Origin: Podarcis gaigeae
Taxonomy: Eukaryota
NCBI GenBank assembly: GCA_964106915.2
Contig: OZ066920.1
Reading direction: 5' to 3' (one strand)
DNA: 64,000 nucleotides
Numbering within the stretch: position 1 is the first letter of the stretch; each line of letters opens with the position of its first letter. The notes under the pieces are model-generated. The model was not told the origin of the DNA and made no database searches. It saw nothing but the letters and a program-made list of their open reading frames with translations. Below, piece after piece: positions 3,078 through 57,072 of the stretch. The translations under genes were made by a program, and so were the position numbers.

Positions 3078-6000
3078 GCTGCCCATTTCTCTTTCTCCTT
3101 CCTTTAGCTGTGGTTTCCTTAACAATGACTGACTTCTTTTCACTCTATTCAGCAGCATCTCAAAAATGAATTAAGAAGACTAACTTGCTATTTGCTTCCC
3201 AGAGGCATTGAGCAATGAAAATACTTGAACATAAACAGGACAATAGAGAGAATGCAGAGATGCTGTGTCACTGAGCTCTTTCTGAATAGAAGACATATTC
3301 CTATTTCATTTTGCAAGGCACTTCTTTGGGAGAGATTTATTTGTAGTGACATTAATCAAATGTAAAAAGCTAGGTGTAAGTAGCACAACTGGTAGTGCTA
3401 TGATCAGATATGGTTAGACCTGTGTTCATATAGTAGCATATATTTCTAAGTAGCAAGGGTTTTCCTCTTGCAATTATTCAATGGCATCAAAATTAGGCTT
3501 TGGGGAAACATTGTTTCAAGGTTCTGACCTTTTCAGTCAGTACTCAAGTGTATGTTTTCCATCTAAATCTTGTACAGCTGAGCCACTGACATTTCCAGTT
3601 TCTGCAGATCTAGATCTGGAAACAGCAGCCAGCAGAATCACAGAAGATATTGTGTGCCTTAGTTTTCATTAATTTGACAGCCTAAATAGGATTGTCGCTT
3701 AATATGCCTATCAAGTGTAGCTAAATAGCCCTGACACTTAAATTACAGAGCTGCATATCGTCTGCACAATGAATCAGGGAGGATTCAGAGATAGAGCATT
3801 CATATCATCCCAGGTTTGATTCCAGGTAAAAAGCGTCAAGTAGAAAATGATGTAAAATACCTTTGCCCATGTCACCAAAGAGCTGTTTCTAGTCACAGAA
3901 GATAATGCTGATCTGGACTGACAAATAGTCTGATATGGCAAGATGCAGCTCCCTATGTTCCTGAGAATCAGTTACTGTTTTGCAAAATATTTCTACTCTA
4001 TATGAATGATGAGAAAAAATTATGTTCAGTGTCCCCAATTGCAGAGGTGGAGTATACTAGTTTTCAGTGATGAGATGTGAAGCCTACTCAATGTCTCTGT
4101 GCCTCCATTGCTTGGTTGCTAGGCCAAGACCTTGAAGGGACTTCTATAACGTCTATAAAGAAGACAATTTTCTTTTCAAAGTGCTGAAATTACCAGGGAA
4201 GTCACACATGAGAATTCAGTCTGACTTTCATTTTACAGGAGCCTTTTCAGGGCCTGGACCTGGCAACATTATTCCCCAGTTTCTGGTATCCAAGTTTTCA
4301 TCTTCCGCCTTCTTGCTCTGTCATTGCCTTATGTACCCAACTTAACTGTGCACTCTGCAGATGAACGCCTCCTGCAGATAGCATTTTATCTGGAGGTCCA
4401 TTTCACACAATGTAGGAATCAGCCCTTAAGTGTTGTGGCATTAATGTGTGGCATGCACTGGGGAGAAAGGAATTTCATTTTTCTATTGATAGTTTATGCC
4501 AAGGATGTCTTCCTGAATAAACTTTCATGTATAAATGACAAATGCTCCCTCCTGCCCCTTAAGTATGGCTGAATCTTAAAAACAACAACAACTCAGATCT
4601 AAACAAAAATATACCACCACTCTATTCAAAATTGTGCAACTGTATTTATAAATAGAGCTGTAAAAAATCCACAGCATAATTGAATAATGACTACGCATAA
4701 ATGAGTCCCATTAACTTAATTGTAGTTTGCTGCAGGACTATTGAACCCGGTGGATTTACTTTTTAATTTGCATAGAATTTGTCTAGCCTTTGCATAATTA
4801 GAGAATAGGACAGGTTCTGTCACCATTGCAAAGGATGCTGATGACAGAAGAGTTTGTTTTTGTGAACACGTATCATTCCAAGTTTCGTTTAAGGCAGCCA
4901 AAGATAATCTTGAGACAGCTGGAAGAAAGACTTTGATTTGTTGCAGGTGGCTAGTGTGAGCTCTGTCTTATTACTAGCTCTTTGATTTGTACGACCTCAC
5001 CAGCATCTGTTTTATCAGTGAACATAGGAGATTGCTTAACTGAAGCAGGCAGTAGGTCCACCTTACCTAGTAAGTTTTCTCTGACAAATAGCAGCTCTAC
5101 AAGGTCTTAGGGCAGGGGTTTCTTCTGACCCCTTTAATCTGTGATCTGCTAATGGATGATTTATTTTTATTATTTTATTTTATTTTAAAGCACATTTATG
5201 CCACTCAATATTTCAAAAGTATCAAAGTGGTGTACAGTTTAAAACACATTATATCATTGAAGCATTTTTTAAAAAACCAAAACCTCAACTTAGAACCAGG
5301 AAAACAGCAATATAGAAACCTCTGAATATTTGCTGCACTGTCAGCTGGTATAAACCAGCTGTTTAACTTTGCCACAAGGATGGTGTTAATTCACAGAGCA
5401 AGTGGGACTGTAACAATGGAAGCCCCCTCCTGTCAAAGTGCCCCTGCTGTAACCTTCCAATGTGGACAGTGTGCTCTTTTCACGCTTCCTGCAGATCAAA
5501 ACATAGAAGCTGTTTCCCCTTCCCGCTGCCTCTTTCCTTTCCAGTACCGTACAAACAACAAAAGTGAGAAATGAGGGAAACAAACCTTTTAACCAAGGAA
5601 TCCCCTGGGGTTGAAGCAAGAAGGGAAACTGCTGTAAAAGATCCACATGCATGTTATAACCTAAATTAGATTATTTCATTGGAAACAACTCTTCTGCTAC
5701 CCCATAGATTCCTCTGTGAGAACCCAATTGTCCTTCAAAGGTGGAAATGTCATAATTCTGACACGCTTCTGTAAGCTTTCTGGTGTTTTATTCTGAGTGC
5801 CAAATTCGAAATTGCAAGTGTTAGATAACTCAGCAAGCCATCTGTAAGATGCAAACCATTTTACACACAGTATTTGTTTGCCTTGAATGCATGGAATGAA
5901 AGCACTGATCACATCACTGCAACTCATAAAATAAATAGATCAAGATGCCACATATTTGACCCTAAATGTCACAGTCCAGTGAGCCTTTCTATACAAAATA

Positions 6001-7980: not shown

Positions 7981-8733
7981 TTCTTATAGTAGACCAGTAT
8001 GAAGTAAGCAGGGACGCAGGTGGCGCTGTGGGTTAAAGCCTCAGCGCCTAGGACTTGCCGATCGAAAGGTCGGCGGTTCGAATCCCTGCGGCGGGGTGCG
8101 CTCCCGCTGCTCGGTCCCAGCGCCTGCCAACCTAGCAGTTCGAAAGCACCTCCGGGTGCAAGTAGATAAATAGGGACCGCTTACCAGCGGGAAGGTAAAC
8201 GGCGTTTCCGTGTGCGGCTCTGGCTCGCCAGATGCAGCTTTGTCACGCTGGCCACGTGACCCGGAAGTGTCTCCGGACAGCGCTGGCCCCTGGCCCCTTG
8301 AGTGAGATGGGCGCACAACCCCAGAGTCTGGCAAGACTGGCCCGTACGGGCAGGGGTACCTTTGCCTTTTATGAAGTAAGCAGCACATAAGCAGCACACA
8401 AAACACTACCAAACCATTCTACGTTCTAAATCTTAAATTAATAATCCAAAAATTGAGAAAGCAAGGTACAAGATCTGCTACAGAAGCCACAAACAGAAAA
8501 CTCATTCAAATTGTGTCCAAAAGGAAGATTCAGTCTTTAAAGTTCCTTTAGCCGGGCTCCTGTAGATATCAACAAAGGTAAGTTTGATCAAACGAAGTGT
8601 CGGCAATGTTACACTCAAGGGTTTTCTGTTTGTGGCTTCTATAGTAGATCTTGCACCTTGCTCTCTCAGTTTTTGGATTATTAATATAAGATTTAGAATG
8701 TGCTGCTTACTTCATATTGGTCTACTACAAGAA
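7981..8733. repeat. Foldback element with about 113-bp imperfect inverted arms; left arm interrupted by a SINE
   Basis: 7981-8010 plus 8383-8501 is the reverse complement of 8621-8733, apart from a few mismatches and a roughly 35-bp insertion; spacer about 120 bp. Confidence 0.85.
8011..8369 (+). mobile_element. Sauria SINE (Squam1-type), full length
   Basis: GGGACGCAGGTGGCGCTGTGGGTTAAA head, B-box GGTTCGAATCC, ACCTTT-type tail, TSD TATGAAGTAAGCA(G). Confidence 0.93.
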
Positions 8734-12690: not shown

Positions 12691-13172
12691 TATGGGATAC
12701 TGCCAGTGCTATTTTTCTAGAAAAAGAGATGCAGGAACTCACCGTGAACACCTCCTTTGTTCTCTTATAATGGTAATGGGGCCCATTTGAGAGGTGCCAG
12801 AACCAAGTTCCGGTGAGTTCCAGGTGAAAACAAGCTGTGGACACTGCGCTGTCAGAACATCAGACATATGAACAGAGAGTTCTTAATGCTTCATTAAAAA
12901 CAGATCCTCATGGTATAAGTGGTATAAGTTTTCCTCTTATGCTAACTCAGTCAAACAGCCCACTAATCCCCTGTTCCACAGATAAACAGGTGGAAAGGCT
13001 TTACTGAGAACTGAATTGACTCACCCTTTTTAAAAATAATAATAATGTGATAGTTGAATGCTGTATTGTATTCTCAATTGCTTTCAAGTTTTCCTCCTCG
13101 TTGTATTTCTGCATGCATTTGTATTGGTTACACTTACCACTTTTATTGTGTTATATATATATATATATATAT

Positions 13173-13406
13173 GCTTTCGTAGATTTTCACGGGTACAGGA
13201 ATGCAGGTTTTGGTGTCCTCGGGTGTCTTCCCGTGTAAAAGTTGGGGTGTCTAGGCGACGTTTCGACGAGGTCTCACTCGTCATCTGTTCCAGTAACAAG
13301 AAGCCGAAAGCACCAGCCTGAAGATGACGAGTGAGACCTCGTCGAAACGTCGCCTAGACACCCCAACTTTTACACGGGAAGACACCCGAGGACACCAAAA
13401 CCTGCA
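13173..13406 (-). mobile_element. Miniature Penelope-like insertion: 3' tail and pLTR piece plus an inverted pLTR piece
   Basis: 13202-13286 and 13322-13406 are 85-bp inverted repeats; sequence matches the pLTR of the adjacent element; flanked by (TA)n. Confidence 0.9.
13311..13357 (+). ncRNA. Minimal type I hammerhead ribozyme motif (PLE pLTR)
   Basis: CTGAAGA-T-GACGAG(tgagac)CTCGTC-GAAAC-GTC: conserved core, 6-bp stem II, palindromic minimal stem III; stem I short. Confidence 0.8.
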
Positions 13407-13507
13407 TATATATATATATATATATATTTGCTTTCGTAGATTTTCACGGGTACAGGAATGCAGGTTTTGGTGTCCTCGGGTGTCTTCCCGTGTAAAAGTT
13501 GGGGTGT

Positions 13508-13554
13508 CTAGGCGACGTTTCGACGAGGTCTCACTCGTCATCTTCAGGCTGGTG
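13508..13554 (-). ncRNA. Minimal type I hammerhead ribozyme motif (sense to the PLE ORF)
   Basis: Reverse complement of the same core and stem II; overlaps the ORF stop codon. Confidence 0.8.
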
Positions 13555-14500
13555 CTTTCGGCTTCTTGTTACTGGAACAGAGCGGGATCTCAATGTTTGA
13601 GTTCCTATAAATACTGTAGAGGGGGTGTGGTGTCTAGCCTCCAATGTTCTGGGCAGAGAGGAAGTTCCTAGGCTAGTGTGCCTTTTCTTCTTTTGTTCCT
13701 TAATTACTTGAGAGATACCTTGAGTGATTTCTTGAGTGATATCCTGAGTACCACTTAGGTGGGTCATTAGGTGTGGATTAGTTGCTAAAGTCTTTGTGTC
13801 TTGACCTCTTGAACTTTGTGAAGAGTTTTCCTGAGAAGATGGCTGTATTGCACTTAGTTGTGCTTTGGCTTGGCTTCGTGTATAGGGGCGAGCTGTGGTT
13901 TTGTGGCTTGTGTCAGCCAGATCTGTGTAGGGATTGCAGGGGGGTGCAGCATCCGGAGGTGCCACCATGGATTGGCTACTGGATGGTGTCAGTAATTCAT
14001 CTGTGGAGAGGGTCTGGGTTTGGGTCTGGTGTGGTTGATTGGTGTTGGCGTTCTGTGTGCCTCTGGATCTGGTGTCAGTTTTTGTGGGGAGGGCTAATTT
14101 CCAGATGTCTGGCAAGCGGGATGTGTCGTCACGCTTGTTCATGTTGTGAGGGTGTTTCTCTATCTCGATGGCTTCCATGATTATTCTCTTGTGGTGATGT
14201 TCCGTGTTAAAGAGCAATTTGGAATCTGCAAAATTAATTTCGTGTCCTGTTTCTTTCATGTGTTGGAAAAGAGAGGAAGTTTTTTCTTCTTTTTTGACGG
14301 CATTCTTGTGTTCTGCGATACGTGCATTTATTCGTCTGTTTGTTTGTCCAATGTACGTGGCTGGGCAGACTTTGCAGGGTATTTCATAGATCCCTTGGTT
14401 TTCCAACTGGATTTTATCCTTGGGGTTTCTGAGGATATTGGCTATTTTTTGGTTGGTGCAAAAGGCTGTTTTGATATTGTGTTTATGGAGGATTTTGCTA
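13531..14500 (-). CDS. C-terminal part of a PLE ORF: GIY-YIG endonuclease plus low-complexity tail (RT lost by truncation)
   Basis: QGIYEIPCKVCPATYIGQTNRRINARIAEH...HMKETGH...EAIEIEKHPHNMNKRD has the PLE GIY-YIG signature with its Cys/His residues; uninterrupted for about 320 codons. Confidence 0.9.
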
Positions 14501-14724
14501 ATCCACACCTAATGACCCACCTAAGTGGTACTCAGGATATCACTCAAGAAATCACTCAAGGTATCTCTCAAGTAATTAAGGAACAAAAGAAGAAAAGGCA
14601 CACTAGCCTAGGAACTTCCTCTCTGCCCAGAACATTGGAGGCTAGACACCACACCCCCTCTACAGTATTTATAGGAACTCAAACATTGAGATCCCGCTCT
14701 GTTCCAGTAACAAGAAGCCGAAAG

Positions 14725-14771
14725 CACCAGCCTGAAGATGACGAGTGAGACCTCGTCGAAACGTCGCCTAG
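14725..14771 (+). ncRNA. Minimal type I hammerhead ribozyme motif (inverted pLTR)
   Basis: Same sequence as 13311-13357. Confidence 0.8.
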
Positions 14772-14816
14772 ACACCCCAACTTTTACACGGGAAGACACC
14801 CGAGGACACCAAAACC

Positions 14817-14855
<39 letters not shown>

Positions 14856-34001: not shown

Positions 34002-34133
34002 NNNNNNNNNNNNNNNNNNNNNNNNNNNNNNNNNNNNNNNNNNNNNNNNNNNNNNNNNNNNNNNNNNNNNNNNNNNNNNNNNNNNNNNNNNNNNNNNNNN
34101 NNNNNNNNNNNNNNNNNNNNNNNNNNNNNNNNN
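34002..34133. other. Assembly gap (132 N)
   Basis: Run of N. Confidence 1.
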
Positions 34134-34310: not shown

Positions 34311-34937
34311 ATACACAGGATACACACGTACACTTTTCTTTCTTTCTGAAGCTTTCACTGGTTGATGTAAATTGATCTGCAGCAGGGATGGTTGTCCCAG
34401 GAACACAGGATGCTGCCTTATACCGCATAAGACAAGTGGTGGTTCAGTATAGTAGCTGGATCAGTATTGTCTACACTGAGTGGAAACAGCTCCCCAGGAC
34501 TTCAGATAGCCCTCTCTCCCACTCCTACCTGGAGGTGCTGGGGATTGAACTGCAGACATACTGCATGCAAAGTAGATGCTCTACCACAGAGCTACAGCTC
34601 TCCCTGTATGTTGTGAAACTGAGTGAGGCTGATCCTAAAAGGTGGCGTCACTCAGCCTCACCACATGGCTTGTCTTTTTATCCTTCAGGTTTTTAAGGCA
34701 GGGGTTGGGAACCTTTCACAGCTGTGTTCCCTTGTAAGCAATCTTTGGGAGCTGCTGGTAGTACAAGCTGATACATTTTTCTATGTACCAGATTTGCACA
34801 AAAGAGCAGTAAAAAAAATGTGTGGGTGCTACCCCAAGCAAGGACACCTATAAGTCAATTGTGGGTGTGCATGCAGGTATTTGTTTACTTGTGTGTATGC
34901 ACCTTTCATATGTGAAATGCAAGGTTTTCCCCCAATA

Positions 34938-35450: not shown

Positions 35451-38400
35451 TTGGCACGAGAGGCTGCTTCTTCATTTCCTTTCTGCTTTCCTTTTCTTGC
35501 CTCCTGTACTTGCATGGGCACATTTTATTTTTTGCTTTTAATACAGTTGCTTTGTGGAACTGCCATTCTGCACAAAAAGTGGTTTTAATTATAAAGATAA
35601 AGCAACTGGTGGGAAAGGATGCAGTGCACAAAAATGCCGTATCTAGCAGGTGGTGCAGTCAGTAAAGCAGCACTACGCTTTTTTTGGGGGGGGGGGGGAG
35701 CGACCACACAATGTGCTTCAGTACATCCACTGTCATGTAATGTGCAATTTTATATCAGACTTTCTCCCCTTACTGGATTATCTGTGAGGGGGGTGGGAGG
35801 TAAGTGGGAGGTACCACTGAGGAAGAAGACACCATGTGTAAATAATACACATTTAAAGAGAATAGTGACCTAAGCAGCTTCAACGTCACATCAAACTCCA
35901 GTCTGGATGAGGCCTTCCTCTAAAATGTGGGATCATTCACATTACCGTAAATTCCTCTTGGAGAAAAATGAGATGGAGGTGCGTTGGGACTATGTATATA
36001 CTAAATATCAGCTTTCTAACACTTCTACCAAAAGTATCCTGACATTGTTGATACCCCTAGTAGCGAATGATTTTGCTCAGATAGATGTCATGTTTCAGAG
36101 GGATACAGATCAATGTTTCCGTAGCCCCATTTTCAAAAAAACATTCTCCCACACATCCAATAAGCTGCTGGGAAAATGTGGTAGAACCTGCAAGAGCCAA
36201 AAAGAGGAGGAAGAGGGATGGGGAAAGTGGGGGAAGGGGAGGACAAAGGAGCACATCTTAAAGCTCACTCCCTAAGAATAAGTCCCATTGCATTTAATGA
36301 GAATTATTTCGGAGTAGGCTTGGATCTTTTTGGACCACAACCCCATTCGTTTTTTGATTTCATTAAAAACTTTGTCCCAGTGCTCTCTTGCAGCAGTAAA
36401 CACTATGGTGGGAAAGTGACTCTTTCTCTTATTTTCAAAGCAGGGCCGTGTCAAAACAATTGATTCTGTGCATAAAAAAACATTTTCTTGTTTTTATTTT
36501 GCAGACATTTTAAATTATATTCAAAGCCCATTGACTTTGGTGGGTTTAAAATGCTTTCCTTGGACTGAGGCCATTCTGCTTCCCTTACACCAGCATGGTT
36601 GATTGAATGAATTATTGTGAGGGTGTCATAAGATATTTTATTGTCACTTCACACTATACATTTAAAGTGCATTCTAAATAAATCCCTGTCCTACAAAGAA
36701 TCATGGGAACTGTAGTTTTGGGTGCTGGAAGTTGTAGTCCTGTGAAGGATAAACTACATCTCCCACTATTCTTTTTTTTGTGGGGGGTGCGGGGTGGTGG
36801 TGGGGAGTGTACTTTGAATAAATGGTGTGTCTGCATTCTGCAGCCATAGATAAAACTTTGAATAGTGAACAATTTTTTTGTTCTCCCTTTTGATGCTAAC
36901 TTTACTGTGTCGTCCCCCCCCCTTCTCCCAGATCAACTCACGGTTAGTTTTGAGCAGTTTATACACAACCTGTCCTTTGAAATGAAGAAGGTCTTTCACT
37001 CTCAATTCAGTTTCTAGGAGGAAAAATACTTTTCCTGCTGCGTGTCTCACCCACCCACTCCGGTCACCCCCCCCCCCCAATACGTCAATGCTAGGGAATC
37101 CCACTAACCTAAGAAAGCAAAGCGCTCGGATATATGAGCTCTGAGCATCCTCTAATCTGGGCGACAATCTCATTTCACAAGTAGCGGAGGGGAGTCATCT
37201 CCATGAGTTTGAACCTGCGTCCTCAGGGGAGGAAAAAAAGTGGGGAGGAGGAAGTTTGTCAGGAAAAGGAGGGAGGGGGGAGACCCTCGTTGAGCCGAAT
37301 AAGAATGATTAAGAGAAGACTTCGTTGCCTTCCACCCACCTAAAGTCGATAGCACTCCAGCGGACTGGCTGAGGCGGAACTATATAAGCCAGGTGTATGG
37401 CAGCCAATTCCGACGGCTGCGACGCGACGCCCAGGACGCAGTTTTTACGGATCGCAGACCAGCCTCCAAGCGGGGAAGTCGCGGGACCGAAGAGGCAACT
37501 TTGGCACGGTAAAGTCCTTTCCTCGCCCCTGAAAAGACTCACGACAGGCTTTAGGCAGGTCTCTCAACTTTGTTGTGAATGGACGGGGGCCCCTTGAGTA
37601 TTACTGAGGGTTTACTGGGTTTACTAGGGTCTACTAGTATATTTCTGCTTGAAATGAATCAGGGTGCCCTCGGGGGTGGGAGGTATGAAGGAGCAGTGAA
37701 ATCGCTTCCCAGGCGATGCACCTGCCAAGGAGGAAGGTGAATGGAAGAAGTTTGCATTTGTGCAGACGCTACGACCACCGGGTGGGTGGGTGTTTCTGTG
37801 TCCCCCCCCCCCGTTAGATTCCCCCCCCCAAAGACAACACTGGGTGAAAGGGAGTTGGAAGAGACAGAACCCAAAGAAGTGGGTTTGTGAATAACTGAAT
37901 TAATATTCTCCCTCCCTTAATCCTAATTGTTCGCTATATTTGGAGAGCTTACTTAGGGGGATAAAGTACCGAGCTTGGGAGCCCGAGTCCCTTCGTGGTC
38001 GGGTTTCCAATCTCTTCTCTCTTTTTCCGAGGGGGTCTAAAACATGGGTGTCCTCGGGAAGGTAGCCCAGGGCCCCACTCAGCAGAATGGGCAGGGCTGG
38101 ATTTAAAGCGGTAGAGGTATGGGTGGGTGTAGGCGTAAGACCACCCAAATCAGAGCTTGAAGAAAAACCCCACCCTATAAAGACAGATTACGAATCCAAA
38201 TACAGTATTGTAGTTGCCGTCGATTATAGAGGCGGAGGGATATTAAACCTGCAATTTTGCGAACACTTCGACCAAGCCCCATTTTATTCCCTAGGGTTTA
38301 TTTTCGAGTAGACAAGCATAGGATTACACTGGGGGGTGGGGTGGGGGGAAGGAACGACCAAGGAATTTTCCGGAAGGGCTAAATTTTTTTTGAGAATATA

Positions 38401-39583
38401 GTATTTCGCGATGCAAAATATTTTAGCTGTGTTTGAGGGAGAAAGAAAGAGAGACTTTGGATTCTGAATATAATTTTGGGTTAAGGGTGTAATTTCTTAA
38501 TAGGTTTGAACAGAGATGCTTAAAAATCGAAGTCAGGTTGCTGCTTCCAAGTCCTGGAGTTAGATTTTGAACAGTACCTCGGACGAATCCTCCATGTCCT
38601 GGGTGCCCATTCTAGAAAAGATGTCAAATTACAAATCCTTTCAAATTGCCATATTCCATGGTGGGGGAAATCAATAAACTGGGGTAAAAAACCCAGGCGT
38701 TGTGCAGTGTTGAAAACAATCAAACAAATAACTAGCCCGCCCCATAGAATCACTTTCGAGGTGCGCGCAACGTTGGTGCAACGGCGCGCCCCGGAGCGAG
38801 ATAACCCGAGCAATGTGTGTGTGGAGTCCCATATTTGATCACAGACCTAAAGATCCGGGTAAGAAATAAGCAGATACTCCTACAAATTCATTCACAAATT
38901 CTCCTTCGGGAGAGGGGAGTCGGGAGGAGCCCCCCGCACCCTACTTGGCGCCCCCCGGCTCCGAGTGAAAACTCGTTCGTCGAGCGCTTTAAAGCCCCAG
39001 GAGCGCTTGGGAAAGAAAGCCAGGCAAATCCCGCCTAAAGCCCCGCGGATCGCGAAATGCGTGGCCTGCTTAATGCCCTCCTCATAATCCGTGTCTATAA
39101 ATGTGCCCTAAAGGGCTCCGGGGTCTAGAAGGGAAGCCGCGGCGGCGGCCTGATGGTGGGCGGGGTCGCGGCGGCGGCGGGACCAGCCCCAAGAGCCCCT
39201 CCCTCCTCCTCCCGCTCCGCCTGGTGTTCCTTCTCCTCCTCCCTTCACACGCCGGGCACAGACCCGAGCGCGAAGCGAGCGTCCGGGCTGGCAACTGGCG
39301 AGGCCCCCGCTGGGACTATTAGCGGAGCGCGCGCCCGGGGAGCTGGCCTGACACCCCTCGCAGCGGCCAAGCCGAGAGGAGAGAGGGCTCCAGCCTCTGG
39401 GAAGCAGCCGCCGCGCGGACGCCCTACTTTCTCTCCCCGGCGCGGCAACCGCGACACGTGCCTTTGGCGCGCCCGCAAGCAGCTGCGACCAACCCGCCGC
39501 CCAGAGCGGCCTCGCGCTCGCGGGGCTCGGCGTGTCGTCCCTCCGCTCGAGCCCCAGGCTGCGCGGCCAGTGCCAGCCCCACG

Positions 39584-39634
39584 ATGAGGCGGGAGCTGAG
39601 GGCGGGAAGGGGCAGCAGCAGCAGCAGGAGCTAA
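39584..39634 (+). other. Upstream ORF (16 aa, MRRELRAGRGSSSSRS) in the presumed 5'UTR
   Basis: cccacgATGa (A at -3); stops at TAA 54 nt before the main ATG. Confidence 0.5.
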
Positions 39635-39688
39635 CCGCCGAGCGCTGCCTCCGCCGCCTCGCTCTCTTTCCCCTCAGGAGGCCGAGAG

Positions 39689-40094
39689 ATGCAAGGGGCC
39701 AAGCCATGCCGCCGCCGCTACCACGCGCTGCCTGCCCTCCTCTTCTTCCTGCTCTTCACCTCAGGACGGGCGCCCAGAGCCGAGGGCGCCGCCGCCGCCA
39801 AGAACAAGACCCGGGACCTCCAGAGCCCGGCGGCGGCGGACAGGAAGGCGCTGCTGGAACTCTTGCTCAGAGCCCTCCGCGAGAGGGGCAGCGGCCACAG
39901 CCGCCCTCAGCACCAGGCGCCTTTTCACCCCTTGGGGGCGGAACGGGTCATCGCTCGGCGCTACACGACCGGCGGCGCCCTTTACTCCTCCGCCTCGGTG
40001 GATCGAGAAGCCAGAGTGATCTCGTCGTCGTCGTCCTCCAGGGAGCGAGCGGGCGCGCAGGCACCCAGGTTCTTCACCTCTTCCCGGCATTCAG
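39689..40094 (+). CDS. ALKAL1: ALK and LTK ligand 1 (augmentor-beta, FAM150A), coding exon 1
   Basis: Signal peptide MQGAKP...LPALLFFLLFTSG (human ALKAL1 from memory: MRPLKPGAPLPALFLL); DRKALLELLLRALRE helix resembles other ALKAL N-termini; phase-1 donor TCAG|GTAAGC gives SRHS|E, matching the ALKAL1 SRSA|EIFPRD junction. The diagnostic AUG-domain exons were not found in the window. Confidence 0.8.
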
Positions 40095-42032
40095 GTAAGC
40101 GGAGAACAGCCTAACCCCTAACGGGTCTCGCCCTTCCTGCCCCATCGCAGCTTGGGTCAGAGCTCCTTTGCAGGGGGCAGGGGAAAGAACACGGCTGCCG
40201 CTGTCCATGTGCAAAGCGCCACCCCCTCCCTCAACCCAGTTCCTACCTGGGACTGAGATCTCAAGGCTTGGATTCCAGGTAAGCTTGAATGAGCCTCCGC
40301 CTTCCCTTGCTGATGCGCGCCTCCTCAACGCGATGGTGCTACCTTCTGCTTTCCCCATCCCTAGTAGTTTCGCATAGTAAAGGAGAAGGCTTTAAAACAG
40401 GACCATCCCTGCTCACCGCTCTTACATTGATGCAGCGGGCATCGTTTGAACTCAGGACAGAAGGTTTACCCTCTGGTTTACTTTGACCTAATGACTTCGA
40501 AATGACTTTATTGAAAACAGTGCTACTTTTAACTTTACTTCCAGATGACTGTTAGAAATAGGATGCGGTTGGTAAACAGCCAGGCTGACTTGGTGCTTCC
40601 CAAACATATTGCAAGTGGTAGCTGGGTTTTAGGCCATTTTAAAATGCAAATCAACCTGTTGATTTGCTTACTGTCACTCATGGTTTCAGTGTTGCTGCTC
40701 CAGCTGTTCTGACAAGCCTTATTTCTCTGGCTGGCTCTCCACAGCTCTGGTTTTGTTGTGTCTAGTACAGAGCGTGGTGCTTGATCCTCGGCAGATCTCC
40801 CTAACTTTCTCTGCCTTGTCCTGAAAAGTTCCAGGGTATGCAAGGTTCATTCACTTTCAGGCTCTCCAAGTGCTTATTGAACTGTTAATTGGTACAGGTC
40901 TTCTGAGGCTAAAACCTCAAGGCACCAGCCTTCCAGCTTTATGTACATAGCAGCCGGAGTTCCAGGAGAGTCTGCTGTTGTCTTTCGTTGTGGAGGCAAA
41001 TAGACCCCAAAGAAATCCTTTTTGCAATCTTAAAGGGAGAAACAACACTGGCTCTTGGCATTTCTGTTCTCTGTGTTCCCTGGCAGGAGGCACCCATCTC
41101 CTCTCCTGCACTGAATTAGTTTTTTTAAGGTGGAGATTTCTTTCATGTGTTCTCAGATCACAACCTGGCCCCTGGCATTTATTACTCCCATTTTGCTTCT
41201 GGCTCCACATTGATCAAGATAAAAAAATGCATCTGTTGTTTAGAAAGTGTGTTACTCTTTTTAACACCGAGAAAGAGGCAAAGCCTTCCTAAACAACTAT
41301 AGTTAACATTTTTAAGGGCAAAACACAGTTTACACAACCCACCACATTCCTGGATTTTTAGACAGAGGAAGTGATTAAGTAAGTACTTAGTTTTAGTAGT
41401 GACTTTTGTCAAACTTTTCCATCTTGATAATTTCTTTTCTCTTTTAGTGCCTAAGTGGCTGGAAGTGGAGAGTGATGGTTTGCAAATAAGAGGCACAATG
41501 CACAGAATGCTAGGTCTACCCAAGTCCCACTAAAATACATCAAATGAAGGCAGTGGATTTGATCCAACAGACGGCTTGTGTAAACTGAAGGAGCTCCTGC
41601 TCACCAGACAAGGCTGTCCTTATTTTTGCTGGTCCTCCTCCAGCTGTGACCACCCCATGTCTCATATCACACCATTCCTAAGGGTCTTTGGATGTCAGGA
41701 TCAGGAGGCTGCAATGAGATGGAGGCAACAAACTCCATCTGGAGTTCATAGGACCCAGCATAGAATGATTTATGCGATTTTTTTGCTTCAGTTCTGACTC
41801 ATCGGAACTTACATGAGCCTGTCTTTGGATTGTACCCGAAGACAATAGTTATTTTCTTTCCCAAGAGCTGCATCTACACGAGGACAAATCTGTGTGAGTT
41901 CAGTTGTACATTGTATAGTCGTCAATGCATAACTGATATATCTGGTCTGTACAATGCCTTTGGGAAGTTTTCTGTCAGATGCAAGCAAGTAAGCCACTCA
42001 ATCTGCACTGTAGGCAAGGTGCTTTGGCAGTA

Positions 42033-42252
42033 CAGTGGTACCTTGGGTTACAGACGCTTCAGGTTACAGACTCCGCTAACCCAGAAATAGTGCTTCAGGT
42101 TAAGAACTTTGCTTCAGGATGAGAACAGAAATCGTGCTGCGGCGGCACAGCAGCAGCGGGAGGCCCCATTAGCTAAAGTGGTGCTTCAGGTTAAGAAGAG
42201 TTTCAAGTTAAGAATGGACCTCCAGAACGAATCAAGCTCTTAACCCAAGGTA
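42033..42252. mobile_element. Tigger-like MITE family A, reverse orientation
   Basis: Approximate reverse complement of 202-426; right TIR truncated. Confidence 0.85.
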
Positions 42253-44803
42253 GAGGTGCAGCCACGGATGTAAATTAAAAAAATGGATGCACATTTTAAT
42301 TACATATACTTATTCCACCTTTTTTTTCATTGCTAAAGGCTAATTTAATTATTGTTAAATTTCCATTTATGTTCAACAGCTACAGAAGAGTTTATTTTTA
42401 AGTGATATAAAACTCATTAAAGTTTTTCTTTTCTGGAGATAAACTATAGAGAAAGCTAACGCAACTTACACTTTCATGGCCTTATGCAGTTTACACAAAG
42501 ATGGCTGAATTTGTATATTTTGCTAATACAGGGAAATATTTAAAAATCTCATGATATTCTAAGATACCATGCTCAGAAAAGCACATTTCCTTTCCCAGTA
42601 AGTCCAAGGCCCTCTGACATCGCTTTTACCATTATGCTTGTTATGAAGCTGCTACTCAAGAGCCACAGCATTCAAGTACAATTTGACAAATGTTAAGTAA
42701 GTTTAGTCATAAATTACCACTATCATCTGGTAGAATATTTTCTGCAAACATACACACAATCAATATCACAGAAATGGTTACGTCCAAATATGAAATTTTA
42801 TATAACAACCTATCATTGAAGGAATGCTCAGTTTCAATTGCCAATAAATTGCTTTTTCGTTTTACTTATTCCACATTTTTAGTTGATTACATATTATCTA
42901 CACTGTGTTCCTTTTAGTTTGTCCTTTTTCTGATATAATATCAGGAAGATAGTAACAGACATAATCAGCTCATTGAGCTAAATTAGCATAAACATGGCAT
43001 GAAGAAACTATGGATTTTGACAATTATTTGTGAGTTATTACAATTGAAATTAAAAGCCATTGTTTTTAAACAACTTCCATTATTTTCTATGTGAAGATTT
43101 CAGGCTACAATGAGAAATTACAACATTTGGCCATTGATTAAGAACAATTCATTAGATCGTTGGGCTTTCTAGAAATTTTCTCCATGGAAAACACAATACA
43201 TTATGGTAATCTGTCCTTTTATGAAACAACAAAAAGACTTTAAAAATATTTATTTGCTGTGGACTCGGCTTCTGCTGCTGATTGAGTTTGGAGCCCTTCT
43301 GAATTCTTGCTGGAGCAGTCAGTTCAACTACCATTTTCCTTTATCCTCATGTCTGCCAAAATGCCAGGAATACAGTCAGTGCAGTCTATGTTCTAAGTGG
43401 AGTTAGGATCTGATAACCAAAGAGAGAACCTTATGGACAATTATCATGGCAGTCTGAATAGCATAAAAGTAGTTTTCAGTCCATTGGTACCATATTTCAA
43501 GAAAGCAAATTCAGGTATTAATATTTTATCCTAACATGGTTGGTGGAAGGGCACAATGCCCCCCCCAAGATGTCAAATTCCATAAAATAACACAGAGGTG
43601 GATTTAGGGGCACATGACTGATTTCCTCGCACTGGGTGCAGAGCTTAGGGGCACCACAACTATTATGTAGAATGGAAAGGGGGAGGTGGGGGGGATTTTG
43701 GCTTTTCACAGGGCATTGCTCAAATTTGAGGTCCCAAGGTCTGCCACTGGTTAACATATCTTAAAGTGATCACATTTTCACAGAGTAGTATCCAGTCTTG
43801 CAGCCCGCTGCACCCTGGTGCAAACTAGAATTTCTGAGGATCCTCCGGAGCAAATTTAGAGGGGGCATAGGAGGCTGCAGAGTGGAGGGGAAACTGCTGA
43901 GAATTGCCACTCTGGCTTTTTCTGCTGACAAATAAATTCCATTTGCAGACAGACAACATTGGACACCACCTATATGTACAGTATTACACTGGGTTTCTAA
44001 TTTCATTCCATTTAACTTTAGAATTGTTCTGGAATGTTTACTGATCTCATGCTTTTATCTTCAAATAGCACACGTTCAACCTTTTTTGTTTTTGTTTTTT
44101 AAATAAAGGACTACTTGGATATATAGTGTGTACTAGAAAAGCCTTCAGTAAAAGATTGTGAGTGGCATAAATCTGAAACCACTATTTTATTCTTTAATCA
44201 AAGTTTATATTGGAGCAGCTAAATGAACTCCTGTAATGTGACCTTTTCATGTACATCAGGGGCTCCCCTTCAGGTGGTCCATGGCATGTCTTTGGATTTG
44301 TGGCTGAAGGCCACAAGTGGTGCATCCATTGCATCCATCTGTACAGTATTGATCTTTAATTGTATTTTTATTGCTTTTATTTCTTTTCTTTTATTGCAGT
44401 TTGAGTTCCACAGAATTCAAAGAAGCAATAAAAATAAAATAAAATGCCACAATTTTGTTTGCTCATTGACCTCTCAGCTCCACCTTTCTAATTGGTCCTA
44501 TGCATGAAACAGGTAGCATACCCGAGGAAGCTACAGCAGAGGTCCTGGATTTCAGTTTTCTACATATCAACCTAAATTTTGGTTCTAGAACCACATTTTA
44601 TTTGTTCCTGTCAGTGATGTTGACATGTGGAATGACTGCTGATGCCTCCCTAGCTTTATCTGCCAACCTATCTAGTTGAAGTATGATATCTGTTACCTTC
44701 ATGCCTGGCATGCAGGAACATCATTGTGCCATCTCCATAGCCATGACAAATCCAACTGTCTGTTTCCATTATAATCAGATCACTCACTATCAGTAGAACC
44801 TGG

Positions 44804-44896
44804 TTACAGATAGGTAGCCGTGTTGGTCTGCCATAGTCAAAACAAAAAAATTCCTTCCGGTAGCACTTTAAAGACCGACTAAGTTAGTTCTAAGTT
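44804..44896 (-). mobile_element. 3'-terminal fragment of a Neptune-type PLE
   Basis: Near-identical to 55112-55200; flanked by 12-bp duplication AGTAGAACCTGG (44792-44803, 44897-44908). Confidence 0.75.
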
Positions 44897-45514
44897 AGTA
44901 GAACCTGGGTCCCTGGTGGTGGATTCCTGGCACAAGAGGATAGTTGTTTGTTCCCTCATGAATAGTTCCTCTCTGATTCTCATTCTCTGTGACAATAGAG
45001 TCCATGGTAGTGAAATGCTTTTGGCATGTCTTTAAAGACCCCATCCACAAACTTCTCTGCCTCTCTGTTTCTCCAGGTTGACGACTTTGGTCTTAAGGGA
45101 TCAAACTTGTTCCCTGAGAGGCAAGAATTCATTGCACTAATTACACTCTCAAGGCTTCTGTCCAGCAGGTACATGTGCCATTTTGTGCAACACACGTGAT
45201 ACAATGGCTTTTTGTTGTTCACTTGGGAATTTGTAATATTACATTTTTAATTGTAATATTAAAATGGGAAAGAGTGGACTGTCTGTACCGGTCTCCTCAC
45301 CCTGTTGCTAAACTCACACAGGTGTCCAGTTTGCTTGTTTGTTTTTCTTTGATACTTTTTCTCAGTGGGTTTGAGGCATTTTCTCATCGGGGGTTTCCTC
45401 TCCTGCAGTTTATCTTGCTTGCATGATTCCTTGCTCCTCTGCCCCACCCGCTTGTATGACATACCTTATCGACAATATGCAACAAAATCCTTTGTTTTCG
45501 AAAACAATGAAGAA

Positions 45515-45665
45515 TTTTGTGGTACTTTAAAGACTAGCACATCTGGTATGAGATAACCTGGTATGGATGGGAGTGCAATTCATCATATGCAACACTTCAT
45601 CACAGATCTGATGAAGTAGACTCTCGTTTATGAAATCTAATGCTACAACAAATCTGTTAGTCTGT
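45515..45665 (+). mobile_element. Degenerate PLE pLTR with decayed hammerhead
   Basis: CTGATGA-AGTAGAC..GTTTAT-GAAA at 45608-45635; AAATCTGTTAGTCT is roughly inverted to AGACTAGCACATCT at the left end. Confidence 0.5.
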
Positions 45666-47704
45666 AACTGTATATAGTTGGTGGACTTACTATGCCATAG
45701 TTCATTGCCCATTCCTGCCAACATGGATTCTAGCAAGCGTAGTATTTTTCATCCTCTTTATTCATTGACCAGAAGGTTTTTTAAAAACAAAAACAAAAAG
45801 TTCTTTTCACAGTAAGTTGAAGACATTTCCATTCCAAAGCAACAAAGCCTTCTTGGTGTGCTTGGTTGATATTTCTGTCTCTGGATGGAACTGCCTTCAG
45901 TTCACTCTGATAAGCTATCTCATTTGCCACATTTCCTGTAAAAATAGTGGGCCCATGCATGATCAGAGGTCTCGACTGCACAGAGCTGAAAACTTGGGGA
46001 AAGCCCTCTGCATTTGCAGAAATGCTTGGCTGCCATATCCTTCCCATCCCATCACCCCTCATAAGTTTGGGGAAAATATAGTAAAGGAGATGGTGATAGA
46101 AATTGGCAGATGAAAGAGCTGGTGGGTCTTGTCATGCACTGGAGAATTTTTATCATAAGCTGAATACTTTTCTAAGCATTCTCAAGGCTTGGGGAAAACC
46201 CAAACCAATTCTGAATTGATTGAAATGATTAATTGCATGTGGATGCCCCACCAATGAAGTATTAAGTTTTATGTATTAAGTACAATTACGTATAAGAATT
46301 GCAAAGCATGGTGTATTCTGAAGTTTGCTATTCTGTGAGTGTATAGTTATACTTCTTAGATTCCTTAGTTACTCTTTATTTTCCCTGATGACTCTCTTAA
46401 ATTAATAGCCCTAAAACCACAGAGGTGGTTTCTACTTGATAAAAAATGTGAGAAGGTAATCACATGTTTTAGAAAAAGGAGCACAAATGTATATTCTTTT
46501 GATGCTTGAATCACAGCACCTGTTGTTTTTCTTGAATTCCCATAGTATGAGTCTTATTAAATAGTGATTGAGTTGCTTCTTGCTTTGATTTCCCCTTACT
46601 ATGACTGAGACCTAATTTATTTGCCCTACTTTTATAATGTCAGTTTCGAACTGTGGGGCTGACATGCTATCCCTCATTTCACTGGCAAACATCCCAGTCC
46701 AGCAAAATATACTACAAGCAAGCATAGCAGATACTAATTGGAGTAATGGCTTCAAACTAAATCTCTCACAGTTCAGTTCCTAAATAAGCAACTGACCCAA
46801 TATGTGTAGGTTTCTTGCTGATAGAAGGTTTTAAATTGAGAGAAAACATAACATTTTTCATCATTTGCTATGCTGGACAGTGGTTTGCATAAATAAATGC
46901 CTCAGTCATCCTTTATTTCTCTTGCCTTTCTGACTCTGCTCTAACTTCGTTTGTTGTTATTTTTGCCTCCTCTGTGTCTCATATCCTCAGGGGTAGCTTG
47001 GGGGGCATGGGAAGCTGCAGTGAGTTGGGGAAACAGCAAAAAAAATGGGAGCCCCACCTTGCACAAGCAGAAATGCTTAGTGCTTACTCAAAGCCACCAC
47101 TGGATACAACCCAATAATAGTAGTCTTAATAATAATATGAAACATTTGGACCATAAGGTCCGTTGCTCAAATTACAAGGGAACCAGAAGGAGCTTGGGTC
47201 ACTTACTTTTGTGGAGACTTCCTTAGTTACCGTTCACTATTTATGGGGTGGGTGGTTGATGATTTGATTAACATTGGAATAAGCAATAACCACTGAGTGC
47301 AAATGCACTTGCACTGGATACTAGAGTCTCAAGGCAGAGAAAATGAAACAGATGCAGAACAAAGTGTTATTAAATGTCACATACAATTTTGGACACTGGG
47401 TGCCAGTGACTACATCAAAAGATACAGTGATAACAGGGGGGTGGAAATAGATTCAGGTAGTAATATTTGCCTTTGAAACGGGAGATATAATCAGAGCAGC
47501 AGCCAGATATGCATTCATGGATTGCACTCCCTCACTTGGATTTGATGCAAAGGAAAAACAGGTATTGGAGTCATAGATTCTGATGATCCCATACTTCACT
47601 CTCCCTCTGCCCCATTGGTTTCATGTAGATGAGAGGTGGGTAATCATTTGGCTACATGAGCAAGATCCTTATCAAGATCTGCCTCCTAGGTCAAATTTGA
47701 TATG

Positions 47705-52589: not shown

Positions 52590-53418
52590 TGCGTGGACAG
52601 GCAGAGTCCCCAGATCCCGCGCGGTCCCCCCGTCATGTGGAATAACGACTCAAGACAACGTGCTATGGGATTAAATTGGCCACAACTTTATTAAATTTCA
52701 AATGTGGGTAGACCTTGGCTCAGGCATTGGGCGTTCTCCCTCCCCAGTCCCCAGCCAGGGACCTAGGGAGCATCAGGGTTATCCAGTGTGTGTGTGGGGG
52801 GGGATGGGCCGGCTCTGGAGAACATATGTTCAAGCAGAGATAACCGCCCCCGTTACGCCGCCGCCGCAGGGGAGAGCAATGACGACCTTTCGGCGTACGG
52901 TCAAAGCCTCCCTTCAGAAAACCCCTTTAACGGGGAACCCTGGTATTGCCGCCGCAAAGAGGAAGATGGACAAAAGGATTCCGCCCAAGGCCTGATACCG
53001 CCAAAGTTGTGACGTTTTGCTACGGGAAAGGCGAAACCTGCCAATGCAGGGAAATTCCTTTCCGGCCCTTTAACAGTGACCTTAACGTAGCAGCGCCCGC
53101 ATACCTGTGAAGAAAAGTTAACCTGCAAAACCTGTGAAGAAAAGTTAACCTGCAAAATAAGACATTAACTGAGGGTGGGTAGGGTGGGAGAAGCTCTGGA
53201 GCCAAGTGAGGATTCCCAGGTAAGATCCTCCCTCTATTGTGTGGGCAGGTAATCCCTCCCCTACCTGGCCTGGTCTCCTTGGCAACTCTTCCCCCAGGTG
53301 GGATTGGACAACTGACTGAGGTAGGTGGAGACCTCCAGGTATCCCACCTGAGGGAAGGCAAAGCCAAGCCTATGCTGTTGGAGCTACTCCAGATCTAGGG
53401 GCTGCAGGCGTCCACGCA
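52590..53418 (-). mobile_element. Young LTR, probably a 3' LTR with a short internal stub to about 53465
   Basis: Perfect 9-bp terminal IR TGCGTGGAC...GTCCACGCA; AATAAA on the minus strand near 52687-52692; CpG-rich; purine-rich AAAACGGGGGG just 5' on the minus strand; no TSD. Confidence 0.65.
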
Positions 53419-53739: not shown

Positions 53740-54019
53740 CAGGGGTCTGCAACCCACGACTCCGGAGCCGCATGTGGCTCTTTTATACCTTTGCCGCGAC
53801 TCCGGGGCGGATACTAGCGAGGGGAGGAGGCGCATTGTGCTCCCCGACACTCCCCACTGTGGCGGGCGCTGTACTGGCTGTGACGTCGCATGGGGGCGGT
53901 GCGTGCGTTAGTCACGCACCGTCCCGACGTCACCTTCCCGCCCGTTGCGGCTCCCAGGTTTTTTTTCTTCGGAAACGGGTCCAAGTGGCTCTTTTTGTCT
54001 TAAAGGTTGCAGACCCCTG
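53740..54019. mobile_element. hAT (Charlie-like) MITE, 280 bp
   Basis: Perfect 15-bp TIR CAGGGGTCTGCAACC; perfect 8-bp TSD AGATAGGC. Confidence 0.95.
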
Positions 54020-54150: not shown

Positions 54151-55111
54151 ATGTAAACAGCTTTAATAATAATATCAGTGGGTATTATAATATATGCTCA
54201 TAGTTTGAGCATATTCACTGTTACCAACCAAGCCTGCATGACCTCCGGATCATATATTACACATATACACACATATCACTGTGGAGTTGATATTTCAAGG
54301 TTTTAGGCTGCTAACTAGAGCATGTCACATGGAAGCAGAGCCATAATTTTATTACTAGGGACAATTAACAAAAACCCACTGAGTCTCAATTTGGATTCAA
54401 AGGTTGAAACACACTTCAAAAGAGAGAAGTATAAGTTTCCTCCATTTCATAGTGCTCAAGAATCTGGAGTCAGTTCTGTATGTCTGGTACAGTGAATCAT
54501 GAATCCCCGAATGTAAGACACAGTCTACCTTTCTGTGCTTGCAAACTGTGTGTCAATCAGAATTTCTTAGTTTCTTATAGCTATGATTGGGGGGTGGGAA
54601 AGGAGGTACCAAATGGCAAGCCTTTGTAGGTCATCCTCAAGACATGCACAGCTCGCATGGGCTACTCTGAAGAGTCCTCAAAATATAACTTTAGAAACTA
54701 ACAAGTTTGCCTAAAGTGAGAACACAGTTCTGAATCTTGTTTACCTGTATGAAAACAACACAGAAGGTGTTCTACACATAGAGAGCAGCAAGATGGAAAA
54801 TGCAATGGGGAGAAAGAAAGAAAGTAAGAAGAACAAATAGCAGACAATGTGTATGTTGTACCAGGGGAAATGAAGTAATGGAGGGATAAAAGAAACATTT
54901 AAATCAGTTTGAATAATCGATTAAAATTAACAGCTAAACATTGGATAGAGCAAAGCTGCAATCATATACATACTTGCATAGAATTCAGGTGACTTCTCAG
55001 TAAACACGCATAGGATTGTGATGGGTGTGGACTGTTTCACCACCGCAGTAGGATAATATAAAGGGGAATGGAAAGCTGGAGATATTAGCTTAAGGTTAAC
55101 ATATATAAACA

Positions 55112-55243
55112 GTTACAGATAGGTAGCCGTGTTGGTCTGCCATAGTCAAAACAAAAAAAATTCCTTCCAGTAGCACCTTAAAGACCAACTAAATTAGTTC
55201 CTGGTATGAGCTTTCATGTGCATGCACACTTCTTCAGATACCA
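55112..55243 (-). mobile_element. Neptune-type PLE terminal fragment
   Basis: Same terminus as 44804-44896, extended through a hammerhead motif. Confidence 0.8.
55202..55243 (-). ncRNA. Minimal type I hammerhead ribozyme motif
   Basis: Minus strand TGGTAT-CTGAAGA-A-GTGTGCATGCACAT-GAAA-GC-TC-ATACCA: perfect 6-bp stem I, core, stem II, palindromic stem III. Confidence 0.85.
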
Positions 55244-56835
55244 AACTTGGATCATTGGCTGAAACTTGGTTGGTAACAGTGAATATGCTCAAATTTGGAT
55301 CATTGGCTGAAACTTGGATCATTGGTTGATGTACCCAAAGTGCTATCTATATTGACTGGTGGCAGCTTTGAAAGCTCTTTCTCAGCCTTGCTGTCTGAAA
55401 TACGGATAACTCTAGAAGCTTGGACTTTCTGAATGGAAAACTTTCACTCAGCTAGTCAGCTACAGCCCCTGAAGAAACGTGTGTGGATGTTTTCGCCCTG
55501 GATTGGTGCAGTGAGGAAAAGAGGAAGTAAAGACAGAATTTTGATAAATGGCAGCATAGAACATGATCATCAAAACAACAAGATTCCAGAAAAGGAATTT
55601 GGTTGAACGGGACTGCACAATGTCTGGCTGAAAGGCATGCTTTTGATACTTAGCCAGGCAAAGGAATGAATGTACACTGATGTGGACCATTTATTCTTAG
55701 AAATATTCATTACTAATTTGAGTAACAATTGCTTGCCAATGGAAAAGTATCTCTGCTGTGTTGTTAATAATATTTAGGGCTACAGTTTCCACTGCTGCCT
55801 GTCAAATATTTTCAAAGGCATCACGTAGGCACAATCCAACACGGACTCAGTCAAGAGGCTTCAGGATAATTATATGTAGGATGCTAAATATGTTCATTAG
55901 GCTTGAACTGAAAGCATATGTGGTACTTTTTGCAAACACTTCTTATGTTTAGGGTTTCAAGACAACAACCCTAAAGAGACAGGCATTCAGAATAAAGACA
56001 GTGTGAGGGGAAATTGTCTTAGGTTGCCCTAAGTGCATCCTGGGATCTTTTTTGGAGGGAGGGGTTGTTTAAATAGCAGGCAATTTTTATTTTTATGTGC
56101 CAATTGGGGAAAGCATTTAGAAACTTGACCCTGTGACCATTCATCCCTCCTGCCAAAGAAATATCAGTCATGTGCCTCCCCTCCTACTGCAAGGTCTTTT
56201 ATTCCGCCTTTCAGGAAACAATAGTATTATGCATTTTCAAACTCCCTGAATACCTAAATGCTAATCGTTCACTGAAGTTTGTACTACTAAAAAGTGTTGT
56301 GAATGTCAGCTTAACTTGATTTCTAACTTAAGCTTCCTATCATGTGTGACTGTTCTACAACCCCCCACATATGGATTACTTCATGGCTTAGGGCTGTAAT
56401 TATCTGCTTGAGCCTCCAGCTGCTTGTCCCACAATCAAGCAAATTAAATCATTACAAATCCAATATACCTTACTATGCTGATCCTACTAAGTTGCTGAGA
56501 ACCTATATAAAGCATTGTGCAATCCTACACAATCTTGTTCTCATCTTAAGTGGTGTCTCTATATTCCCAAATGTTTTACAAAACAATAAAATATTTCTCT
56601 AACAGTAACATTTATTTCAGAGTAATGTTGTTCAAAAGACCAAATAGCCATTATACAAATGTTTGTAGCCATCAAACAAATGGCTTTTTCCATTCTTTTA
56701 ATCAAGCAATGTGCTTCAGAATATAACATCTTCAAAATATATATTTAATATTAAGTAGCACATTTGTAGAATATGGTAAAACTCATGGTGTACAATTGAC
56801 TGAGAAATGCTGCTGAGAAAGTCCAAATGAAATTA

Positions 56836-57072
56836 CAGTGGTACCTCAGGTTAAGAACTTAATTCGTTCTGGAGGTCCATTCTTAACCTGAAACTGTTTT
56901 AACCTGGGGTACCACTTTGCCTAATGGGGCCTCCCGCTGCCGCCGTCCTGCCACCATGTGATTTCTGTCCTCATGCTGAAGCAAAGTTCTTAACCCGAGG
57001 TACTATTTCTGGGTTAGTGGAGTCTGTAACATGAAGCGTCTGTAAGATGAAGTGTCTGTAATAGGAGTACTG
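56836..57072. mobile_element. Tigger-like MITE family A
   Basis: TA-CAGTGGTACCTCAGGTTAAG; homologous to 202-426; right TIR degenerate. Confidence 0.85.

Follow-up and report, generated by a model that had tools for sequence, protein, structure and literature searches.

How did 29 nucleotides come to stand, as an exact reverse complement, about 1 kb from their counterpart and beside the truncated end of a retroelement fragment? We addressed this question with sequence tests within the 64,000-nt stretch of DNA analysed here (the window), together with simulated and shuffled sequences and published papers. GC content ranges from 38 to 59% across the window, a scaffold gap of 132 N lies at 34002–34133, and the contents include decayed RT fragments and one GIY-YIG-bearing element. 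The DNA is eukaryotic, and its repeats resemble those of a squamate reptile, probably a lizard. Further landmarks are a GC-rich island with long open frames at 38000–40100, which is probably a promoter with a first exon; a perfect 27-bp tandem duplication within a GC-rich repeat-like segment (53103–53157); an imperfect palindrome of ~350 bp adjoining a SINE copy (8370–8716); and three copies of a ~220-bp MITE-like element with inverted ends (200–429, 42030–42252 and 56834–57053).

The inverted pair and its donor

An earlier note on this DNA had reported an exact inverted 29-mer, and our analysis confirmed it as a unique pair in the window, far beyond chance. Positions 54204–54232 are the exact reverse complement of 55265–55293, the exact match is not extendable, and 1,032 nt separate the two arms. 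With up to three mismatches allowed, the 29-mer occurs twice in 64,000 bases, while any such match was found in 0 of 100 shuffles. The longest exact inverted match in each of 100 Markov-3 simulated windows was 15–22 nt, and the analytic expectation for exact 29-nt inverted pairs in 64 kb is 1.4e-8. Among the exact repeats of at least 16 nt, listed with low-complexity rows excluded, the 29-mer is the sole inverted pair longer than 20 nt outside longer repeat alignments.

A perfect inverted pair at a spacing of 1.1 kb could represent the terminal inverted repeats of a 1.1-kb DNA transposon or MITE, and the earlier note had itself raised a multi-copy element of this kind as a competing account. 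Locally, this account fails, with no target-site duplication (TSD) and no further copies in the 64-kb window. Across the 16 trims of the arms that were scanned, no flanking duplication was seen at trims −3 to +6, and those at 7–11 gave just 2–4-nt matches inside the hairpin described below. Neither the 29-mer nor the interior has a further copy in 64 kb, and the right arm is embedded in a direct-repeat patchwork with microhomologies, all of which makes a transposon origin extremely unlikely.

The two arms differ in status. Because the ends of the 29-mer coincide with the ends of a foreign core lying between two direct blocks, 55265–55293 is identified as the recipient and 54204–54232 (plus strand) as the donor. 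The reverse polarity, in which the copy at 55265 is native and that at 54204 derived, for example as the tail of an old SINE, was tried and rejected: the context of the 29-mer is unlike either in-window SINE tail (null fractions 0.12–0.79), and adding the 29-mer raised the SINE alignment score merely from 60.7 to 62.2. As a separate observation, a ~280-bp segment between exact 15-bp inverted repeats (53740–54019), probably a small non-autonomous DNA transposon, ends 185 nt left of the donor.

A patchwork of direct and inverted copies

The anatomy of the junction was observed directly. Along the plus strand, the element (to 55241–55243) is followed by a 27-nt block (55243–55269), a 21-nt core (55270–55290) and the block again (55291–55317), with the scar beginning 0–1 nt from the element end. 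The repeated block, 27–28 bp long at 55242/3–55269 and 55290/1–55317 with one mismatch, brackets the foreign core, which sequence comparison places, inverted, at 54207–54227. The first block is a direct copy of the right-flank block 55291–55317, would represent the first copying round and ends in a 5-nt priming microhomology (55265–55269). Positions 55291–55306 hold the return join and a second unit, and a third unit at 55307–55325 marks the start of the right flank and runs into ordinary flank. Both returns to the right flank land on the same position. A tandem of 19-bp period is also present in the scar.

Three copies of a repeat unit had been described around the 29-mer, and the 12-nt core of this unit was indeed found in three exact copies at 55247, 55295 and 55314, all inside 80 nt; in the control, three scattered matches at one mismatch arose in 4 of 100 shuffles. 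The arrangement is better described as a pair of 27–28-bp blocks plus the tandem of 19-bp period. A greedy source parse fits one or two pre-existing 19-bp units alike, with chance 8-mers confounding the parse.

The 29-mer consists of the core and its overlaps with the block, CTTGG on the left (54228–54232, plus strand, in the donor) and AAA on the right. Of the two microhomologies originally claimed, CTTGG stands as stated, while AAA holds for the present sequence and was probably longer before a change at 55294. This T is the single discordant base of the second unit: a C stands at the matching position in copy 1 (55246), in copy 3 (55313) and, read as the complement, in the continuation of the donor (54203), and the base after 55294 also agrees with the donor. 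Because one substitution or misincorporation at 55294 explains three mismatches, the right microhomology was probably AAACT (5 nt) originally, and the inverted match would then have been 31 nt long, reaching 54202. Overlaps of 5 nt on both sides of a 21-nt core are available at 2 of 127,454 window sites, the donor being one, and overlaps of 5 nt on the left and 3 nt on the right at seven.

An assembly or library artefact, such as a chimeric read or an amplification chimera, is hardly credible as the source of this pattern. Amplification is known to produce inverted local chimeras, and the window does contain the 132-N gap, but the out-and-back double switch, the private substitution at 55294 and a position exactly beside the element end look germline.

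The inserted bases thus map exactly to nearby DNA, beyond chance; the patchwork is short (a 21-nt inverted core, a 27-nt direct block and a 19-bp tandem); and microhomology is found at both the priming and the resolving joins (5 nt on the left; 3 nt on the right, or 5 if 55294 was C), as in a TMEJ-type templated insertion. A template immediately flanking the break is true of the direct copies; the inverted core derives from a site 879 nt from the element's left end. With its two direct blocks and one inverted donor, the junction supports the proposal of a templated, microhomology-flanked insertion built by repeated priming on the flank and on DNA ~1 kb away, and we consider it very probable that the scar is a microhomology-primed, multi-switch templated insertion.

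At its distal end the donor overlaps a perfect 9-bp hairpin with a 5-nt loop (54192–54214, plus strand), and the copied stretch ends within this loop. Non-microsatellite hairpins of such kind number 10 in 64 kb, and a full arm is found in 0.6% of 31-nt segments, a coincidence that was noticed post hoc; the hairpin folds modestly better than shuffles (z −1.85, with 7 of 200 as good). If the hairpin re-formed, it would displace 9 nt of the nascent end, which may be why that end was released.

The same hairpin could be a fragile site in a different scenario, in which 54233–55111 was flipped during insertion and a staggered break at 54204–54232 left the 29-mer behind as an inverted duplication. 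Target-site inversions accompany some L1 insertions, as passages of PMC11702581 describe, and an inversion removes the need for a 1-kb reach. It requires, however, an extra clean junction at 54232/54233 without a reciprocal duplication, and the window yielded no homology that bridges either of the alternative junctions; we judge such an inversion improbable.

The adjoining element and its target site

The scar lies against a short, 5′-truncated, non-coding retroelement fragment of ~130 bp (55112–55243, minus strand; 3′ end at ~55112–55113, 5′ end at 55241–55243), which is probably derived from a Penelope-like element (PLE). This label is given because of a minimal hammerhead motif, rather than an ORF or a consensus match. 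The type I motif at 55200–55245 (minus strand) comprises helix I, a CUGANGA-H core, helix II, GAAA, a palindromic 15.2–16.2 and UC, and was compared with the minimal hammerhead consensus of metazoan PLEs as presented in parts of PMC4209133. A strict descriptor, corresponding to the minimal type I hammerhead in the pseudo-LTR of PLEs, matched only here in the window and in 0 of 200 simulated windows; a relaxed core gave five matches in the window, three of them inside the GIY-YIG element at 13.2–14.8 kb, an internal positive control. Position 11.1 is U in place of the usual C, which is compatible with CpG decay, and the helices are present in the computed fold (z −1.07). The fragment gave no Rfam hammerhead match at the gathering threshold or at E<10, which is expected because the motif is minimal.

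Consistent with a PLE, the fragment also belongs to a set of interspersed copies with a common 3′ end and variable 5′ truncation, represented here by two members: 55112–55200 and 44803–44890 are identical in 84 of 89 aligned columns and share one end (55112/44803), while their opposite ends differ. The fragment may possibly be a non-autonomous derivative (a retrozyme monomer) instead. The window contains no longer copy of it, and four sequence motifs used to look for other copies of the family were not found in the paper texts searched; element motifs had no match in one GTDB scan, a single 21-nt chance match to a bacterial contig in another, and none among plasmids. The earlier placement of the scar at the 5′ end of a truncated PLE fragment thus holds, for a fragment that is probably a PLE: its hammerhead is on the minus strand, the element RNA corresponds to that strand, and the scar stands at the 5′ end. 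Bases 55242–55243 extend helix I to six Watson-Crick pairs and may be element-derived, in which case the first join would have 0–2 nt of microhomology.

Two further loci in the window were recorded as related elements. A Penelope/Poseidon-type element at 13152–14851 carries a GIY-YIG remnant (Pfam E 2.7e-4, below the cut-off) and three hammerhead cores, and its nested inverted 5′-truncated copies and (AT)n ends are known PLE architecture. A probable older, decayed relative of the element family lies in head-to-head arrangement at 45490–45690 by a weak alignment, with a hammerhead core at 45608 (plus strand) and a 9-bp inverted repeat (45594–45617) where the halves meet.

The sister copy of the fragment lies within 44792–44908 (minus strand) and is flanked by a 12-bp TSD (44792–44803 and 44897–44908). 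Its 5′ join contains a direct re-copy of a 10-nt stretch of the element's own end, with an 11-bp period (44879–44899), overlapping the TSD by 3 nt; 1.2% of window positions have a short duplication of this sort no more than 10 nt away. In the sister copy we note one more templated 5′ junction of this family. Around the fragment at 55112–55243, the scan detected no TSD, and because the sister copy has one of 12 bp, the integration of the 55.1-kb copy would have been aberrant. The triplicated unit was tried as the missing TSD and rejected, since the left flank does not end in the unit and the only match, of 5–6 nt, falls inside the donor-derived core.

To the right of the scar, the flank (55307–55470, minus strand) passes from the third unit into a probable old, decayed tRNA-derived SINE, with weak nhmmer matches (E 0.03–0.9) to the in-window SINE copies at 34392–34606 and 3790–3971. 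Its score exceeded that of all 500 shuffles, yet two unrelated real windows of 2,514 match or beat it, besides four over the 3.8-kb copy. The tRNA-derived label rests on an Rfam tRNA match. A SINE 3′ tail went undetected on either side of the insertion, with none of five candidate segments beating random in 10 comparisons. Copies of tRNA-derived SINEs of differing age are seen at 34392–34606, 3790–3971, 55307–55470 and 5020–5126, the last two being weak. We would guess that the in-window SINE is perhaps Squam2. An identity with Squam3 was rejected, as the published Squam3 consensus, compared by eye from a part of PMC7983390 (supplement 1), differs.

Alternatively, the templated scar could stem from the repair of an unrelated double-strand break after insertion, in which the element lost its 5′ part and its right-hand TSD; a single deletion would then account for the absence of both the TSD and the SINE tail. 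Deletion with templated insertion is a standard Pol theta outcome (passages of PMC12426944), and such a break would leave the same adjacency and, about half the time, the same strand geometry. Against it, young PLE-like DNA makes up ~3% of the window (~1.9 of 64 kb), yet the sole scar of its kind adjoins such DNA. The element moreover stops at the 5′ arm of helix I of the hammerhead, the point at which the older remnant at 45.6 kb seems to begin too, on weak evidence; the strand geometry is that expected of the cDNA strand; and the 5′ join of the sister copy also has a re-copied 10-nt stretch. We therefore regard a later break as rather unlikely, if worth serious consideration, and favour, with some reserve, the reading that the scar was made as the 5′ end of the PLE-like insertion was attached to the opposite side of the break in the target.

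A model for the junction and its precedents

From the arrangement of the pieces we infer an order of steps, a link to integration and a set of candidate enzymes. The minus-strand element RNA would template a first-strand cDNA by which the left flank's plus strand grows from ~55111 to ~55241–55243. The cDNA 3′ end would anneal near the tip of the right end, copy 27 nt (55243–55269) and release, after which its terminal CTTGG would turn back in cis and pair at 54228–54232, ~880 nt left of the insertion point, with left-flank plus strand that resection had made single-stranded. This fold-back would copy 21–26 nt in inverted orientation, halting in the loop of the 9-bp hairpin, and the new end would re-anneal to the same right-flank tip through AAACT, completing the join. 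The 19-bp tandem unit may have pre-existed or may reflect one further slip in the same episode, and the TSD would have been lost during the aberrant joining.

The strand geometry is consistent with this order. After 5′ resection, the left side would offer a single-stranded plus strand and the right side a single-stranded minus strand, so that a plus-strand 3′ end would copy the right side directly (in trans) and the left side inverted (in cis). Direct copies from the right flank together with an inverted one from the left thus fit extension of the plus strand, the cDNA strand, whereas minus-strand extension predicts the opposite geometry, given standard resection polarity.

For the polymerase within the integration scenario, the sequence features offer three candidates. 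Pol theta-type end joining is the most likely of them, though it falls short of an even chance; the element's own RT is possible but less likely, and a Pol delta/MMBIR-type fold-back is somewhat less likely again.

Pol theta templated insertions, as described in passages of PMC12426944 and PMC2895639, are generally shorter than 25 bp and occasionally longer, and are patchwork products of iterative priming copied from the flank. Like products of TMEJ/SD-MMEJ, the scar combines short 21-nt and 27-nt segments from nearby DNA in a direct and inverted patchwork with microhomology joins; it differs from them in that one template lies at ~0.9–1 kb instead of directly beside the break, and in that one of the break ends would be a retroelement cDNA. 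Among truncated somatic L1s, 22 of 3,598 carry templated insertions, with the template typically ≤15 bp from the site (portions of 10.1101/2024.08.27.596794), and an experimental L1 set includes three templated insertions (PMC11702581, in part). In both the L1 junctions and the present one, near-site genomic DNA is copied into the junction of a 5′-truncated retroelement, and dissociation and re-pairing of the cDNA has been proposed for L1. The L1 cases differ in being somatic or from cell culture, with templates typically within 15 bp, whereas here a fixed, presumably germline PLE-like copy shows at least three switches.

R2 (PRINT) insertions have snap-back 5′ junctions that prime on the cDNA or on nearby DNA (sections of PMC11371274). 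The scar resembles these in that a cDNA 3′ end would prime extra inverted, DNA-templated synthesis before the 5′ join; it differs in that R2 snaps back mostly onto the cDNA and less often onto nearby rDNA, whereas the template here is flank 1 kb upstream and the inverted piece stands between direct copies. A 2025 paper in Science reportedly concerns the repair pathways of R2 insertions.

Among PLEs themselves, 5′ ends often carry inverted truncated copies of the element (parts of PMC8557442). The scar is like these ends in being rearranged by re-priming, and the GIY-YIG element at 13152–14851 shows the known pattern; the inverted piece here, however, is host flank DNA rather than element. According to a passage of PMC11167929, the steps of PLE integration that follow first-strand synthesis have yet to be validated. 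No report of templated host-DNA inserts at PLE junctions was found in the literature searched, most subscription papers lying outside its reach; in the portion consulted, the PLE paper PMC11167929 applies the same phrase to RNA-templated products.

In yeast, Pol delta fold-back yields inverted inserts of 5–34 bp through intramolecular microhomology on a resected end, with a 41-nt loop (excerpts of PMC11724301). The inverted insert here would likewise be primed by intramolecular microhomology, but its loop would be ~1 kb instead of 41 nt, and its second end is joined by microhomology. Compared with published templates, which are flanking or within 15 bp, a donor at 0.9–1 kb is atypical.

Template switching at a replication fork (FoSTeS/MMBIR-like) would involve no break at the element, a nascent strand having copied briefly from the opposite strand at a distance of 1 kb before switching back. 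A distance of 1 kb is within replication-fork range. Pol delta fold-back or MMBIR can also yield microhomology-primed inverted templated insertions (excerpts of PMC11724301), but fork switching leaves the adjacency to the element end and the lost TSD unexplained, and we hold it to be very improbable.

Within the preferred reading, in which the scar arose as the insertion's 5′ end was joined, a more specific proposal is that the element's telomerase-related RT runs off its RNA at the hammerhead and realigns its 3′ end repeatedly on short DNA templates. The templates would be the same register of the target tip and the element's own strand 1 kb back, and such telomerase-like iterative re-priming would be a family-wide route of 5′ attachment in a squamate PLE clade. 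Re-copied sequence is seen at the 5′ join of both young copies in the window, and perhaps at the older remnant at 45.5–45.7 kb, compared with 22 of 3,598 somatic L1s. We consider the proposal unlikely, both in its mechanism and in its family-wide extent.

The locus is a clear single example (n=1) of a known kind of repair scar and not a new system; it is a neutral scar without a function of its own. It has two mildly unusual features, the 1-kb donor and the PLE context. A single locus changes little, given that joins patched from templates are already on record both for Pol theta repair and for the 5′ ends of L1 and R2. It is of use as a lead on the completion of PLE insertions: judged by the strand polarity of the pieces, ~0.9 kb on the primer side would have been single-stranded while the element integrated, which is a prediction that can be counted genome-wide at the family's 5′ junctions. 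If the re-priming by the element's RT were true, thousands of natural records of how the second half of PLE integration proceeds would be present in lizard genomes.
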